A stretch of DNA of 63,008 nt, filler included, from Globobulimina sp. (taxonomy: Eukaryota): the NCBI GenBank assembly GCA_003354225.1. It is 32 parts of 32 records of this genome, joined end to end, with 100 filler letters (N's around TTAATTAATTAA, not from the genome) between each part and the next. Parts side by side here need not be neighbours in the genome. Positions count along the whole stretch, not along the records: positions 13,816 to 15,688 come from PIVH01011024.1; 31 more parts are not named here. One strand, written 5' to 3'. Of this stretch, positions 11,845 to 45,270 are shown one piece after another. Positions within the stretch are counted from its first letter, which is position 1. Every line of letters starts with the position of its first letter. A program made the position numbers and the translations under genes. Below the pieces are notes generated by a model. The model did no database searches, was not told the DNA's origin, and saw only the letters and a list, made by a program, of their open reading frames with translations.

Positions 11845-13596
11845 CCCCGTCGTTTACAGGAAGATGTAGCAAATCGTGGAGGGAATGGTATTGGATGTTA
11901 TACTGAATATAGTACCATGATAACTGGCATGAATGGAACTAGTCAGAATCAATTTGAAGAAATATGGTGTACCTTAGCAGATAGCAAAGTAAGCGCTAAA
12001 GATTTTACCGGTAAAAATTATTGCATAAAAGCAATAGAAAATAATCATTTTCAATTTATTGTTATGGGAACCATCAAAGATTACTTAGATTTTATTGGAA
12101 AAATTGATAGTGGTGCAGTATCACGAACAGACGTGTATATATTAGATAAGTTTTGTAGATATTTTTATCAAAATATGAAATATGAGCAAAATCATTCAGT
12201 AATTGAAAACTGGATGAAATATCAAACTGCATTACAAATTATTTCAACCTATCAAAAAGATGAAGATGCAGATATTGATATTGATATTGATATTGATCAA
12301 GAACAAGAACAAAAAGATGAAGATGAAGATGAAGATGTAGATATTGATATTGATATTGATATTAATCAAAAAGATGAAGATGTGACCATTAAATTTCGAA
12401 CTGATCCAATTATTTTTAAATTTCCGCATAGTAAGTTATTAGAATTATTTCATAGTGTTACTGAAAACGAAACAGGAATTATAGCGGCAGAAAAATTGCA
12501 TACGACAATGATTGATGATTTTGGAGCAAAATATAACAAAGAAATGAATTTATATGTTATCCCTCACAGTTGTGAACATTTAGTAGCGACTGATTATGTA
12601 GCATATATTTGGAATATAGAAAATAAGCAAACAATGTTATGGTCGATTGACGATATAAATCCGCATTATGCAGAATTACAATGTGATTCATTGTACACGC
12701 GAATAACTCGACGTGCTCTCAATTCCGCAATAAATCTACAATGTCTTTCCTTTTATGATGAATTAATAAGAAGATTTGATAACGGCACATTAATGAATTT
12801 TAATATTGAGAGATTTTCGTTAATATCTAAGGATAATATGCGTGACGCGATTAATTTACAAGGAGAACTTAATTGGGTAAATGAAGCAATACTAAAACCA
12901 TTTAATGACCTTGGTATTGACTTTAGTTCAGCAACCAAATTGCCAGCAACTCTCAAGAAACAATTGCAAAAACAAGGAGTGAAAAATGGGAAACCAATTG
13001 TTGCCATAGAACTTGATAGTATTGATATGTTTGAATTGATTGCATCTGTAGTGATTGGTGTCAAAAATTTTGGATCCAATGGCGACTTAAGTTATCATTT
13101 TCGAAATCATAAATGCATCACTCCGGAAGTTATGAGAAAAGTATTATATTTATTACAGGAGAAATCAATTATTAAAGTCATAACAAATAAAAGACAAATT
13201 AAATATGAGTTTAAACCATTGGTCGAAGCTAATACAAATGCATATAATTCGAATGCATTTTATTTATTACAACATTTAGAACATTCCGATGCAGCAGCCA
13301 AAGCAAGGATCGTCATTGGTGCTATCAATATAGAAACATTATTAACTCAAACAGAAACATCTGCGGATAACAAAGATCGAGTTAGAAATGCATACAAATA
13401 TTGTTTAAAGGAAGAAATTAGAGAACAAAAGGAATTTATTTCGGATTTATTTCAAGAATATGCCAGATTAGCACCAATATCCATTGCAGGTGGGAGATTA
13501 ACACCAACTAATCCAGCGATTCAAAAGGGAAGTAAAAGAAAACGAGACGATAAAAACAATAATTCAGGACCTAGTAAGAAGAAAGCTAAAAAATAA
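11845..13596 (+). CDS. DUF3987/YfjI-like (MCM-related AAA+) helicase module with winged helix and NLS, 5'-partial
   Basis: Frame open from the contig edge: PRRLQEDVANRGGNGIGCYTEY...LADSKVSAKDF...FQFIVMGT...DSGAVSR; lid-like RRALNSAINLQCL...ISKDNMRDAINL; C-terminal KRKR...KKKAKK. Confidence 0.55.
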   Translation, partial: PRRLQEDVANRGGNGIGCYTEYSTMITGMNGTSQNQFEEIWCTLADSKVSAKDFTGKNYCIKAIENNHFQFIVMGTIKDYLDFIGKIDSGAVSRTDVYILDKFCRYFYQNMKYEQNHSVIENWMKYQTALQIISTYQKDEDADIDIDIDIDQEQEQKDEDEDEDVDIDIDIDINQKDEDVTIKFRTDPIIFKFPHSKLLELFHSVTENETGIIAAEKLHTTMIDDFGAKYNKEMNLYVIPHSCEHLVATDYVAYIWNIENKQTMLWSIDDINPHYAELQCDSLYTRITRRALNSAINLQCLSFYDELIRRFDNGTLMNFNIERFSLISKDNMRDAINLQGELNWVNEAILKPFNDLGIDFSSATKLPATLKKQLQKQGVKNGKPIVAIELDSIDMFELIASVVIGVKNFGSNGDLSYHFRNHKCITPEVMRKVLYLLQEKSIIKVITNKRQIKYEFKPLVEANTNAYNSNAFYLLQHLEHSDAAAKARIVIGAINIETLLTQTETSADNKDRVRNAYKYCLKEEIREQKEFISDLFQEYARLAPISIAGGRLTPTNPAIQKGSKRKRDDKNNNSGPSKKKAKK

Positions 13597-13996
13597 AAGA
13601 GTTAGATTGTAAACACTTATTTAAATTCATAAATTAAATTAAAAAGTCAGATAAAAAAAAAAAAAAAAAAAATACATAAAGATGAAATGTTAAAGCTAAT
13701 TTCAAATTAATATTTNNNNNNNNNNNNNNNNNNNNNNNNNNNNNNNNNNNNNNNNNNNNTTAATTAATTAANNNNNNNNNNNNNNNNNNNNNNNNNNNNN
13801 NNNNNNNNNNNNNNNCTTTTTTTTGTCATTTTTGCTCTGCGATTTGCTTTGTTTATGCTTGACGACATGTGTTCGATTAATAATATTATACAGTATTTTC
13901 ACCAACGTTTATCTTGTGTTTTTAGCAACGTTTTCTGATTAATTCATGTTTGGCTAAGTTTTTCCACACTTTAAGTGAGGAAAAACTGTACGTGAA

Positions 13997-15688
13997 ATGA
14001 CTTCAAACTTGAACTCGTTAAAACGGCCACCTCGAGCACTTCCCGCCTTGTCATCTCCCACTTCGCGCTCTATAAACTCCGTACCACAAAGTCCTCCAAA
14101 AATACCACATTTGAATACACTCAAATCCAATAATCATAAACCACCGGCACCGGCACCAAACACTAACAACAACAACGAGAACGAGAATGAGTCCGTGCTC
14201 CCACCGCCCGAGTTAGCCCCATTAAACTCCCCATCTCCATCTCCCGATCGCTTCCGCGGTATAAAATTACCGCTTGGATGGCTGCAATGTCCTTTGCAAT
14301 TCAGTCAGCCACTGCGCGACCATCGCATTTTAGTTTGTAAGACGCCAATTGATGTTGAGATAGCTCAATATTTGCAAATTCCAAAAGAGAAACATTTTTT
14401 GCCGCACACCATCTACACCCTACCCAATAAGCACTATATTTGTAAACAGCAACAACAGCAATTATCAGCCACAAAGAAAAGAGTGGTCGGCTTAGTGGTC
14501 GACCTCACCAATCAAATGTATTACGATCAGATCTCGTTCAATAACGGAAAAAAAACAAACAAAGTCAAGCGGCGCATCATTACCATGGACGACACCACCA
14601 AACCAACAGAGAGCGAAACCTCTGGCTTTGTCGGCTTAATCAAGTCGTACTTGGATGCCACCAATAATAAGGACAAATGGATTGTGATCCATGACGAGTT
14701 AGGCTACGATTTGTGCGGTTTCATGTGCTGCGCCTTCATGGTGAAGGAACTCAACTATTCTGTCGATGCCGCTGTGTACGAATTCAGTAAGAATAGAAAA
14801 CCGGGCATCTATAACGTGCAATTAATTCGTTTGCTGCATGGAATGTTTTCTGACGCAGAGGATTTGGATGTATTTGAACAAATGCTTAAAATCAAACCGT
14901 TGTCGAAACCGACGTGGTTGCAATCTGGACGTGACTCTCAGAAATGTATCAAACGTAAAGTCAAAGCAGCGGCTGCTGCTACACCCAAACAGTCAGAATT
15001 TGCAGTACCAACCACATCGATATCGGTTCGACGCAAAAGATCCTTTTCAGAGATGTCTTTATCTTCAAATGGTATCTTCAAAATATATATAAACAACACA
15101 TGTTTGTACATATTTATATTGTTTTAATTCTATAACAGGTGGCAATAAAGCAAGTGCATACAAACCAGAAGCAGCGCATAACAGTGCCACGAATATCATC
15201 ATGGAACCGAAACTGCTACAAAAAGCTCCGTCGGACATCATAATGGAACCGACGTTGTTGGAACCGGCGTTGAAAAAGGCTCGGACGGATATTGTTGTTC
15301 ATATTCCGCGTGAATTGAAACAACAGCATTCGTATTTAATTGCAGTGGGTGCACAGCAGCAACACTTACAGCATTTGACCACAATCGCTCTACAATTATC
15401 TAAAAACAAAGACCTATTCCATTCAATCCAAAGCGCGCCAGTTACGATACCCAGCTCCTCGTTGATGGCATTGGCAACAAAATATCGCATTACATGGCTA
15501 ACGCGCGGGTATATATTTTGGTTGATGATTTTGGGCAAAAAAGGCTGTTTTTTTGTAGATCCGTCGTATTTATCCACTGGGAAATTAGGCGGAATTTACC
15601 ATATTCCAGGCACCATTTTCTATGATGGCGCGAATAATAAATATATGGACGGGACACTGTGTAGTGGCGAATTGGTGGTTGATAATAT
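13997..15688 (+). CDS. mRNA capping enzyme (RNGTT-type triphosphatase + guanylyltransferase) homolog with degenerate catalytic motifs; intron 15072-15138; 3'-partial
   Basis: GWLQCP, CKTP, GLVVDLTN, HDELGYDLCGF, FSKNRKPGIY, then YRITWLTRGYIFWLMI and GTLCSGELVVD, collinear with RNGTT. Confidence 0.85.
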
Positions 15689-16178
15689 NNNNNNNNNNNN
15701 NNNNNNNNNNNNNNNNNNNNNNNNNNNNNNNNTTAATTAATTAANNNNNNNNNNNNNNNNNNNNNNNNNNNNNNNNNNNNNNNNNNNNCATTCGTTGGTG
15801 ATGATGATAGTTCTGATGAGGATATTGAAGATGTTGATTAATTGTTTTAATCACCGACTTTGAATGTATTGTAAATTAAATTAAGCCCAAAACGTTTTTA
15901 TTTGAATTAATTATAGTCCGAAACGTTTTTATTTGCATTTATCGAGGTAGCAGTCATCAGTACGTCCCTAGTTGAATTATAATAACACAACGTTCCGATT
16001 TTTTTAATGGGAATATAATCGAACAAATTAGCGGATGGAAAGTTATAATTATATAGCGTACGTTTTGTCACTCTCTGGGTTGATAATGAAATTGCAAATT
16101 AATAATTAAAAGCACATATTACAAAAAAATAAAAAATAAAATAATAAATTTAAAATGTTGGAATATTTGGTTCCATTA

Positions 16179-17107
<929 letters not shown>

Positions 17108-17761
17108 TTTGGATGGGATGGATGGATTGATGTCTTTTCTTTTGTTTTGGTGCTATTAAAACTAAGAATGAAAAGAGAAAGTGAGGTGGTGTTTTTGTGT
17201 TTTTGGGTTGAAAAGTTTTAAAATGAGTGAGAGTCCTCGGCATCCCTGATTTAACATCCATGATAAATTGTTCTTATGGCAAAGATTTTGCCAATCCAAT
17301 CGAAAAGTTGAAGTCCGACCACCACAATGAAAATTAGCGCAATAGGTGTCTTCAAAACACTAAGAAATCCATCCTTTGTGTTTCTTTGATCGATGTGATT
17401 TTCTACGAAAGTGTTATATTTTGTGTGCAATGACATAATTATTAATTAATTGTGTACAGTAAAGTGCATCATAATTACCCTAAAACTGTTGATGCCTATA
17501 AATATATCGAGTGACATTTAAAAACAAACAAGAAAACAAAATTATGGAATGATTAGAGTTTTTTTTTTATTTTTGCAATAATTCAATAGTAAATATCTAT
17601 ATGCTATGATTGTACATTAATAACTAATTTAATACTGATCTGGAATCATTTTTGATTGTTCNNNNNNNNNNNNNNNNNNNNNNNNNNNNNNNNNNNNNNN
17701 NNNNNTTAATTAATTAANNNNNNNNNNNNNNNNNNNNNNNNNNNNNNNNNNNNNNNNNNNN

Positions 17762-44560: not shown

Positions 44561-44749
44561 ATTGTTTGATTAGATTTGAATTCTCTCTGTCTGTGTTAAA
44601 TTGTATTGTTTCTTTAATATATTCTTTGTGTACCTTTCTGTGCACCATATTATATAACACTTTTATGTAGAAATGGGTGTCACTCATTATTGTTGTATTG
44701 TATTGAATCAAATTGAAATGCAAAAAAAGAAGGAAACTCTTTAAAAACT

Positions 44750-45270
44750 TTGAAAATATCACAAAACATGGATGCTTTATATCCCTCAAATACAGAAATT
44801 TTAAAATGGGTTGATAGTTTACCTCCTGATCCAAAATATAAATTGCAAGATATTGAAGTCAATACATATGAACGCAAAACTCCATCAAATTACAGACGGC
44901 CAAAACAAAAGAAAACATACTCTTCATTACCATCATTGATTGTTGATGATTGGTTGTATTTAGGCTCGCATCAACATTGTAAATCAATACAAATAATTAA
45001 AGACTTAGGAATAACTCATATTTTATGTTGTAGCGACATTATTCCATGTTATTTTTTATATGACGATGAAATGAACATCAAATACGGAAGAATACGCATT
45101 GGAGATTGGTATTGTGCTGATATTTTTAATTATTTTCATGCGAGTACACAATTTATTGATCAATGCAATCCATTGTATAATATGGACAATACTAACAAAA
45201 TATTGATCCACTGTGAAATGGGCAAATCAAGATCGTCAACAATAGTGATTGCATATTTATTATCAAAGCA
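44750..45270 (+). CDS. Dual-specificity protein phosphatase, partial
   Basis: PSLIVDDWLYLGS, LGITHIL, HCEMGKSRSSTIVIAYL. Confidence 0.88.

Follow-up and report, generated by a model that had tools for sequence, protein, structure and literature searches.

A sequence-predicted, catalytically inactive derivative of the bifunctional mRNA capping enzyme in Globobulimina sp. and other Retaria

A 63,008-base stretch of Globobulimina sp. DNA (hereafter the window) carries, wholly on the piece at 13816-15688 (1873 bp, PIVH01011024.1), a gene for a homolog of the mRNA capping enzyme in which both active sites are predicted to be inactive. On balance, we consider it somewhat more likely than not that this gene encodes a maintained, catalytically dead derivative of the metazoan/plant-type bifunctional capping enzyme and that the derivative would act as a non-catalytic adaptor. 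Comparison with orthologs and with independent assemblies makes it very probable that the gene is real, spliced and selectively maintained, encoding a pseudoenzyme under selection. A first-pass annotation made from the sequence of the window had proposed a maintained double pseudoenzyme, and this core inference was supported by the same losses in orthologs, by the same codons in independent assemblies, by mostly synonymous divergence and by a spliced form. The present analysis extends that proposal, as sequence comparison also supports the loss of the OB domain, the spread of the family across Retaria and possible deep relatives.

The open frame runs from an ATG at 13997 to 15071, resumes at 15139 and is free of stops to the contig end at 15688, giving 1623 open coding bases. 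Using tblastn, the full-length ortholog P0003 matched exon 1 at 63% identity (E = 2.9e-123) and exon 2 at 64% identity (E = 1.6e-65). The N-terminus of the window protein aligns with the N-termini of the full-length orthologs P0003 and P0005; therefore, the start codon at 13997 is probably right. The window copy ends at 15688, where about 110 C-terminal residues of the orthologs are missing, and the 5' two thirds of the gene are present. The gene had earlier been called intact, which holds for its reading frame and intron but not for the gene as a whole, which is cut by the contig end and incomplete.

The N-terminal domain was identified by a phmmer search of all PDB chains, in which exon-1 residues 90-289 matched the triphosphatase of human and mouse capping enzymes (2c46, 1i9s, and 8p4a; E = 1.4e-13 to 1.8e-12), the best match being human 2c46 (E = 1.4e-13). 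In addition, Pfam DSPc was found in this domain with 35.1 bits (E = 1.3e-8). The codons at 14690-14713 read HDELGYDL, as the first-pass annotation had stated, and the phmmer alignment places this octapeptide under HCTHGFNR, with Asp for Cys and Leu for Arg. The window protein thus lacks the P-loop of an active enzyme, HCxxGxxR, with its nucleophilic Cys and phosphate-binding Arg.

Exon 2 alone gave a weak match to Pfam PF01331 (19.3 bits, below the 29.6 cut-off) and nothing significant among PDB chains, the best being a chance match (E = 1.7). The guanylyltransferase domain was aligned using a profile of three full-length orthologs against human RNGTT residues 273-441, and this profile matched RNGTT (8p4a_M) in two stretches that cover both domains (E = 9e-28). 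At motif I, the family has W-L under human W293-K294, with Leu at the position of Lys294; this motif reads WLTRG in the window, WLG(H/K)G in orthologs, and WKADG in canonical enzymes. At motif III, Ser in the window and Cys in orthologs stand under human D343, and E345 is kept. The profile alignment therefore bears out the earlier reading of TWLTRG at 15492-15509 and SGE at 15663-15671 as losses of Lys and Asp. Motifs IIIa to V lie past the contig end in the window copy and were read from the orthologs. Motif IIIa of the family, PRFLITD, retains the Arg and Asp of human PRYLIYD and has Thr under Y362, motif IV (DGLG under human DGLI) keeps DG in the foraminiferal orthologs, and motif V, LKWKP in canonical enzymes, has become L(R/K)I(A/T)(L/I) at the extreme C-terminus of the orthologs, without lysines. 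The window protein thus lacks the motif I signature KxDG with the guanosine monophosphate (GMP)-accepting Lys, and the family does not have the full motif III, IIIa, IV, and V set of covalent nucleotidyltransferases.

Descent from a fused triphosphatase-guanylyltransferase gene was indicated by the presence of both folds in the same order (PF00782 and PF01331), with significant similarity in sequence and structure. These matches indicate that the window protein is homologous to the capping enzyme, far beyond chance. It is best regarded as a pseudoenzyme derived from that enzyme, resembling pseudophosphatases in principle.

A word-based homolog search returned three longer proteins with both Pfam domains, P0003 (735 residues), P0004 (628 residues), and P0005 (768 residues). 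P0003 is 63% identical to the window protein, and the record name of P0005 gives an MMETSP transcriptome id and the organism Ammonia, a rotaliid foraminifer. P0157, P0006, P0007, P0008, and P0158 were added by a second search. An exhaustive profile search of 1.84 billion representatives yielded 901 proteins with E <= 1e-3, of which 10 reached E <= 1e-30, with a sharp drop to canonical capping enzymes at ~1e-27. The matches listed by this search were aligned to the profile and their motif columns were compared. Of the family rows (P0003-P0009, P0011, P0012, P0014, and P0015), none that covers the P-loop has its Cys or Arg, the loop taking the form H/F/Y/T, then D or S, x, L/Y, G/S, x, N, L/I/M/T/V. 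Likewise, all family rows covering motif I have Leu, never Lys, after Trp. Canonical matches in the same table read HCTHG(F/H/Y)NRTG and WKADG.

Identity to the three orthologs is 59-70% in the triphosphatase-like domain, 66-75% in the nucleotidyltransferase-like half, and 29-51% in the linker. The same losses are found in orthologs at 50-63% identity, including that of Ammonia, the Reticulomyxa and radiolarian members being more distant. These two members are P0011, a partial hypothetical protein of Reticulomyxa filosa (ETO16282.1), and P0064, a protein of the acantharian radiolarian Astrolonche serrata, and both fell into a well-supported clade with the window family (Shimodaira-Hasegawa-like approximate likelihood ratio test [SH-aLRT] 95-96). 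Orthologs with the same substitutions, which the first-pass annotation had suggested looking for, were thus found in Ammonia, Reticulomyxa, Astrolonche serrata, and further records, and their sequences indicate that the dead capping-enzyme family spans Foraminifera and Radiolaria. Among metagenome contigs scanned with an alignment and with P0004, no relative was confirmed. Around motif I, P0005 (Ammonia sp.) carries MMAIKEKYRISWLGKGYHFWLM twice in tandem; the repeat could stem from the transcriptome assembly, or the motif I strand may truly be duplicated.

The full-length orthologs also revealed what lies beyond the contig end. Pfam analysis of the dead proteins detected PF01331 in eight of nine (55-69 bits in the full-length orthologs P0003, P0004, P0006, and P0008) and PF03919, the OB domain with motif VI, in none of the nine; the canonical control P0017 had both. 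Moreover, P0003, P0004, P0005, P0157, and P0158 end in a shared C-terminus, ..PPFGQRxL(R/K)I(A/T)(L/I), which aligns with the start of motif V. These results indicate that motif V and the entire OB domain, with motif VI, are gone from the family.

The remaining two domains were modelled using AlphaFold2 on ortholog P0157 with a nine-sequence alignment. The mean predicted local distance difference test score was 59.6, low because the N-terminus and a 140-residue linker are disordered, and the two domains scored 70-89. A Foldseek search of the model against the PDB placed human RNGTT first (8p4c_M, E = 1.5e-17), followed by human and mouse guanylyltransferase (3s24 and 3rtx), the capping enzymes of yeast and Chlorella virus, and DNA ligases, and 2c46 matched the N-terminal, triphosphatase domain of the model.

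The reality and maintenance of the gene were assessed by comparing the window contig with Logan contigs of four runs: X1, the best holder of the locus and possibly the source sample; X2, from another study; and X6 and X7, from a third. For X1 and X2 no library type is recorded, and X6 and X7 were taken as RNA by guess. At the codons of the P-loop, motif I, and motif III, the contigs of X1 and X2, and thus of two studies, match those of the window; record 5 of X1 covers the P-loop with no difference, and record 10 of X2 has no base difference at motif I. The active-site codons are therefore real, and they are not edited back to canonical codons. X1 contigs retain the intron, whereas in an X2 contig (1822 nt, depth 94) 15070/71 is joined to 15138/39, so that the 67-nt GT..AG intron is skipped; this contig extends about 250 nt past 15688. 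Its five differences from the window comprise one upstream of the start codon and four synonymous third-position changes, with none in active-site codons. Expression is thus supported by the intron-less form in X2, together with the MMETSP id in the record name of the Ammonia ortholog.

The X6 and X7 contigs are 90-95% alike to the window and lack the intron, and their changes, mostly T>C and A>G, fall at intervals of three. In the listed differences (40 of 104), 28 of the 33 changed codons are synonymous (multi-hit codons combined by hand), and three of the five non-synonymous ones fall in the disordered N-terminus. This codon count agrees with the constraint that the first-pass annotation had proposed to check by dN/dS. 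The two indels in X7, of 6 and 12 nt, are both in frame. Loss of catalytic residues, conservation under purifying selection, and expression, the marks of a pseudoenzyme, were thus all found, and the residues lost suggest that the protein is inactive.

Some variation at the locus was also recorded. At 15653, the window has G and all four runs, including the probable source sample, have C, a synonymous change from GGG to GGC; the G, close to the end of the contig, probably reflects misassembly or a minor allele. X1 also contains a variant whose intron has 10 nt inserted at 15108, and an 88-nt contig that diverges from the window over the N-rich low-complexity segment at 14123-14210, and these variant forms are probably alleles in one sample.

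The loss of Cys, Arg, and Lys suggests that the protein neither hydrolyses RNA 5'-triphosphate nor forms an enzyme-GMP adduct and would therefore work by binding. We propose that the dead homolog would serve RNA polymerase II in its early elongation complex, as an adaptor or regulator without catalysis. The docking patch of its nucleotidyltransferase domain, formed by the equivalents of human R358, R411, L381, and P414, would bind the phosphorylated C-terminal domain (CTD) of the polymerase, and the conserved motifs of the linker would recruit or retain partners. The Asp that replaces the catalytic Cys probably occupies the anion hole of the P-loop, closing the pocket. In human capping enzyme, according to PMC8034621, the CTD-binding sites are CDS1 (R330/K331/R386), CDS2 (R358/K403/R411), and CDS-Y2 (L381/F377/P414/F416), CDS2 being the phospho-Ser pocket and CDS-Y2 the Tyr pocket, conserved from animals to yeasts. 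In the profile alignment, the family has Arg under R358, Arg under R411 (with a further Arg at -2), Leu under L381, and Pro under P414, and the K403 equivalent falls in a loop that the family lacks. Even in the 11 OB-less proteins that are most distant, the equivalents of R358, R411, and K413 vary little or not at all. Furthermore, the linker contains two to six copies of (I/L)(I/M/V)EPx(L/I)(L/I), kept between species, and a basic EPPxK(K/R)x(K/R) stretch, also conserved between species; these motifs look like docking or localisation signals, and the motif FAVPTTSI..RKRSFSEM is a possible nuclear-localisation or phosphorylation site. The CTD-adaptor mechanism itself is a tentative proposal, favoured over the alternatives but less likely than not.

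Several observations weigh against the adaptor interpretation or the evidence for maintenance. The family does not retain the CDS1 residues R330, K331, and R386 where these align. Earlier work cited in PMC8034621 found that K294A lowers CTD binding of the mammalian enzyme, so that loss of the Lys may weaken CTD docking itself. The retained Arg, Leu, and Pro are also conserved in active enzymes and may serve the fold only. Given the unrecorded library type of X2, a retrocopy in DNA could in principle account for its intron-less form. Finally, the synonymous count draws on 40 of 104 differences, and the window copy, ending short of its 3' end, leaves its own C-terminus unseen.

Other explanations were weighed on the same evidence. 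The nucleotidyltransferase-like pocket might still bind a small ligand or an RNA end, or the protein might perform new chemistry through other residues, such as the P-loop Asp. Across 11 very distant OB-less members, the Glu of motif III, the Arg and Asp of motif IIIa, and the R-x-K aligned to human R411-K413 do not vary, the foraminiferal proteins retain DG of motif IV, and the recurrence of Asp at the Cys position suggests that this residue itself matters. However, the family has neither the Lys nucleophile nor the lysines of motif V, and it lacks the OB domain together with motif VI. Thr stands under Y362, and K460 and R528-K533 are listed in PMC8034621 among residues important for GTP and RNA binding. 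The loss of the P-loop Arg and the acidic side chain in the anion hole also speak against phosphate binding. We therefore regard retained ligand binding or new chemistry as unlikely, second to the adaptor reading, and the same features (an acidic P-loop residue, no Arg, and loss of motif V and of the OB domain with motif VI) disfavour the 5'-triphosphate or cap sensor suggested in the first-pass annotation.

A decaying pseudogene, or a functionless and recently inactivated duplicate, would agree with the loss of all catalytic residues and with the incompleteness of the window copy, but 1623 open coding bases, a correctly spliced intron, the same substitutions and C-terminus in orthologs, the predominance of synonymous codons (28 of 33 among the differences listed), and in-frame indels make it highly improbable. 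The probability is practically negligible that the unusual codons arose by assembly or sequencing artefact, or that the transcript is edited back to encode an ordinary capping enzyme: the contig is short, the assembly fragmented, and base 15653 differs from all four runs, yet X1 and X2 agree at the active-site codons and orthologs have the same residues. The protein might also be the organism's only capping-enzyme homolog, capping mRNA by an unorthodox mechanism. Of the 10 nearest canonical matches whose names were compared, none is named as rhizarian, five having an organism name, all holozoan (by name, Ichthyophonus, Intoshia, Didymoeca, and Monosiga), and five having none, and P0159, the best canonical match by shared words, looks like an animal enzyme from its resemblance to animal proteins. 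In contrast, with the nucleophilic Lys, motif V, and the OB domain lost, nothing is left of the elements that GMP transfer is known to require. Many protists have a separate, unrelated triphosphatase and a stand-alone guanylyltransferase, and such a split apparatus would not rank high in the searches made. Capping by this protein is thus very improbable, and a maintained, non-catalytic adaptor is the reading we prefer.

Further OB-less proteins with degenerate sites were found outside Retaria. P0045 is from the chlorarachniophyte Amorphochlora amoebiformis (GAB5367021.1), and P0112 is from Chytridium lagenaria (KAI8850409.1), with orthologs in Dinochytrium and Phlyctochytrium that are 53-64% identical; both of these chytrid orthologs came from a third search with a distant alignment, driven mainly by its first sequence. 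P0015, P0103/P0156, P0058, P0075, P0028, and P0048 belong to the same class. Asp occupies the Cys position in the foraminifera, in P0014, P0015, P0103, P0058, and P0075, and in the three chytrids, and Thr in motif IIIa is common. In a maximum-likelihood tree of 57 rows, all 20 OB-less degenerate rows lie on one side of a branch with SH-aLRT 93, below 95, and the Retaria rows group with Amorphochlora and four further rows (SH-aLRT 95). An earlier 66-row tree agrees with this result. The trees came from a quick search, include long branches of deviant composition, and sample no canonical rhizarian enzyme. The grouping of the OB-less dead proteins fits a single old origin, with moderate support and possible long-branch attraction. 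On that basis, the foraminiferal gene would be a member of an old, unnamed eukaryotic family of OB-less, doubly dead paralogs, usually with Asp at the P-loop Cys, that arose before the split of Rhizaria and fungi or spread between them, persists in Retaria, chlorarachniophytes, chytrids, and other protists, and has a non-catalytic role in co-transcriptional RNA processing, for example as a CTD- or Spt5-bound adaptor competing with or positioning the active machinery. We regard this wider proposal as doubtful.

Seven further degenerate copies nest in canonical animal and plant clades, in sand flies, an amphipod, a bdelloid rotifer, Aquilegia, a Withania-containing cluster, and one other. In the animal and plant copies (P0079, P0147, P0029, P0124, P0043, and P0035), the motif I Lys and/or the P-loop Cys/Arg are lost; those with names are from Phlebotomus papatasi (A0A1B0DMK0), Sergentomyia, Hirondellea gigas (A0A6A7G1Z7), Adineta steineri, Aquilegia coerulea, and Withania somnifera. 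Their position within canonical clades indicates independent events, taking the gene models as deposited, and suggests that capping-enzyme duplicates repeatedly lose their chemistry.

The features of the gene are given in the table. The window consists of 32 unrelated pieces of 1870-1874 bp each, arranged from longest to shortest, and the joins between pieces are N runs around TTAATTAATTAA, a six-frame stop linker. Gene order and synteny across the joined window therefore carry no meaning, and the pseudogenes on other pieces are neither neighbours of the capping-enzyme homolog nor a control for it. The contrast that the first-pass annotation drew with indel-ridden pseudogenes elsewhere in the window is thus meaningless, as these sit on unrelated joined contigs. 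A tblastn search of the other 31 pieces with canonical capping enzymes found no further capping-enzyme locus; its one weak match, at 45134-45268, was rejected as an ordinary dual-specificity phosphatase with an intact HC..R loop. That phosphatase, at 44717-45270 (+), has an intact HC(x5)R loop and Pfam DSPc at 64.8 bits, is cut by the contig end, and is the only phosphatase-fold gene in the window besides the capping-enzyme homolog. On the adjoining piece, 16176-17152 (-) encodes a papain-family cysteine protease (Peptidase_C1, E = 6.6e-17; I29 propeptide inhibitor, E = 4.9e-13) spread over several frames, presumably through introns. At 11845-13596 (+), a 583-residue open frame has no Pfam match, a long acidic (D-I / D-E / Q-E) repeat, and a basic lysine-rich tail.

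Table. Features of the capping-enzyme homolog gene, in window coordinates.
Feature	Position	Strand	Basis or content
Exon 1	13997..15071	+	Disordered N-terminus, triphosphatase-like domain, and first linker part; open frame
Cysteine-phosphatase-fold (RNA triphosphatase-like) domain, residues 90-289	14264..14863	+	PDB phmmer, Pfam DSPc
Degenerate P-loop HDELGYDL (Cys to Asp, Arg to Leu)	14690..14713	+	Aligned under HCTHGFNR
Linker motif FAVPTTSI..RKRSFSEM, basic, Ser-rich	14999..15055	+	Kept in P0003 and P0005, partly in P0004
Intron, 67 nt, GT..AG, phase 1	15072..15138	+	Exact removal in X2 contig
Exon 2, open to contig end, 3' part of gene missing	15139..15688	+	Frame reading, tblastn of P0003
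Repeated linear motif (I/L)(I/M)EPxLL, in linker	15195..15266	+	Like repeats in P0003, P0004, P0005, and P0008
N-terminal half of nucleotidyltransferase-like (guanylyltransferase-like) domain	15297..15688	+	Pfam PF01331, ortholog identity
Degenerate motif I TWLTRG, Leu at position of GMP-accepting Lys (codon 15498-15500)	15492..15509	+	Profile alignment
Motif III SGE (Asp to Ser; Cys in orthologs), Glu kept	15663..15671	+	Profile alignment, motif table

Pseudoenzymes are common. The capping enzyme ranks with the most thoroughly studied RNA-processing enzymes of eukaryotes and is a classic marker for the relationships of their lineages. In the literature searched (titles and abstract openings, with subscription journals and supplements outside the scope), no catalytically dead capping-enzyme homolog was found described. 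Members of the family and their relatives are named in databases as 'hypothetical protein', 'protein-tyrosine phosphatase-like protein' (Chytridium KAI8850409.1), or 'mRNA-capping enzyme(-like)', and automatic annotation under either of the last two names misleads for such proteins. A protein that has kept both capping folds and discarded their chemistry and the OB domain would be a natural separation-of-function variant, isolating what the enzyme does apart from catalysis, for example through its allosteric surfaces or by docking to the transcription machinery. Should the wider OB-less clade have arisen only once, it would represent an unrecognised ancient component of eukaryotic transcription-coupled processing and would bear on the exchange between fused, cysteine-phosphatase-type capping systems and split, fungal/protozoal-type ones.

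Among known systems, the closest is the metazoan/plant-type bifunctional capping enzyme (human RNGTT and mouse Mce1; 2c46, 1i9s, 3s24, 3rtx, and 8p4a), with which the family shares its domain order, the motif III Glu, PR.L..D of motif IIIa, DG of motif IV, and the equivalents of R358, R411, L381, and P414. It differs in the replacement of Cys by Asp and Arg by Leu in the P-loop, of Lys by Leu in motif I, and of Asp by Ser or Cys in motif III, in the Thr at Tyr362, in the lack of the motif V lysines, the OB domain, and motif VI, and in a linker of ~150-250 residues with conserved motifs. Pseudophosphatases of the protein tyrosine and dual-specificity phosphatase families, such as STYX and MK-STYX, have the tyrosine phosphatase fold with the catalytic Cys replaced, are conserved, and are presumed to have a binding role; STYX-type proteins retain the P-loop Arg and still bind phospho-ligands. 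Unlike these, the foraminiferal protein also lacks the Arg, has an acidic residue for Cys, and is fused to a second domain that is predicted to be dead. The OB-less proteins of chytrids and Amorphochlora have the same architecture and the Thr in motif IIIa (..FL(I/V)TD..), and their P-loops lack Arg, with Asp for Cys in the chytrids and Ser for Cys in Amorphochlora. However, they are only 22-29% identical to the foraminiferal family, and the chytrid proteins retain the motif I Lys and lose its Asp (WKTQG), where the foraminiferal family has Leu. The degenerate copies of animals and plants are alike in the loss of Lys294 and/or P-loop residues, but their origin appears to be separate.

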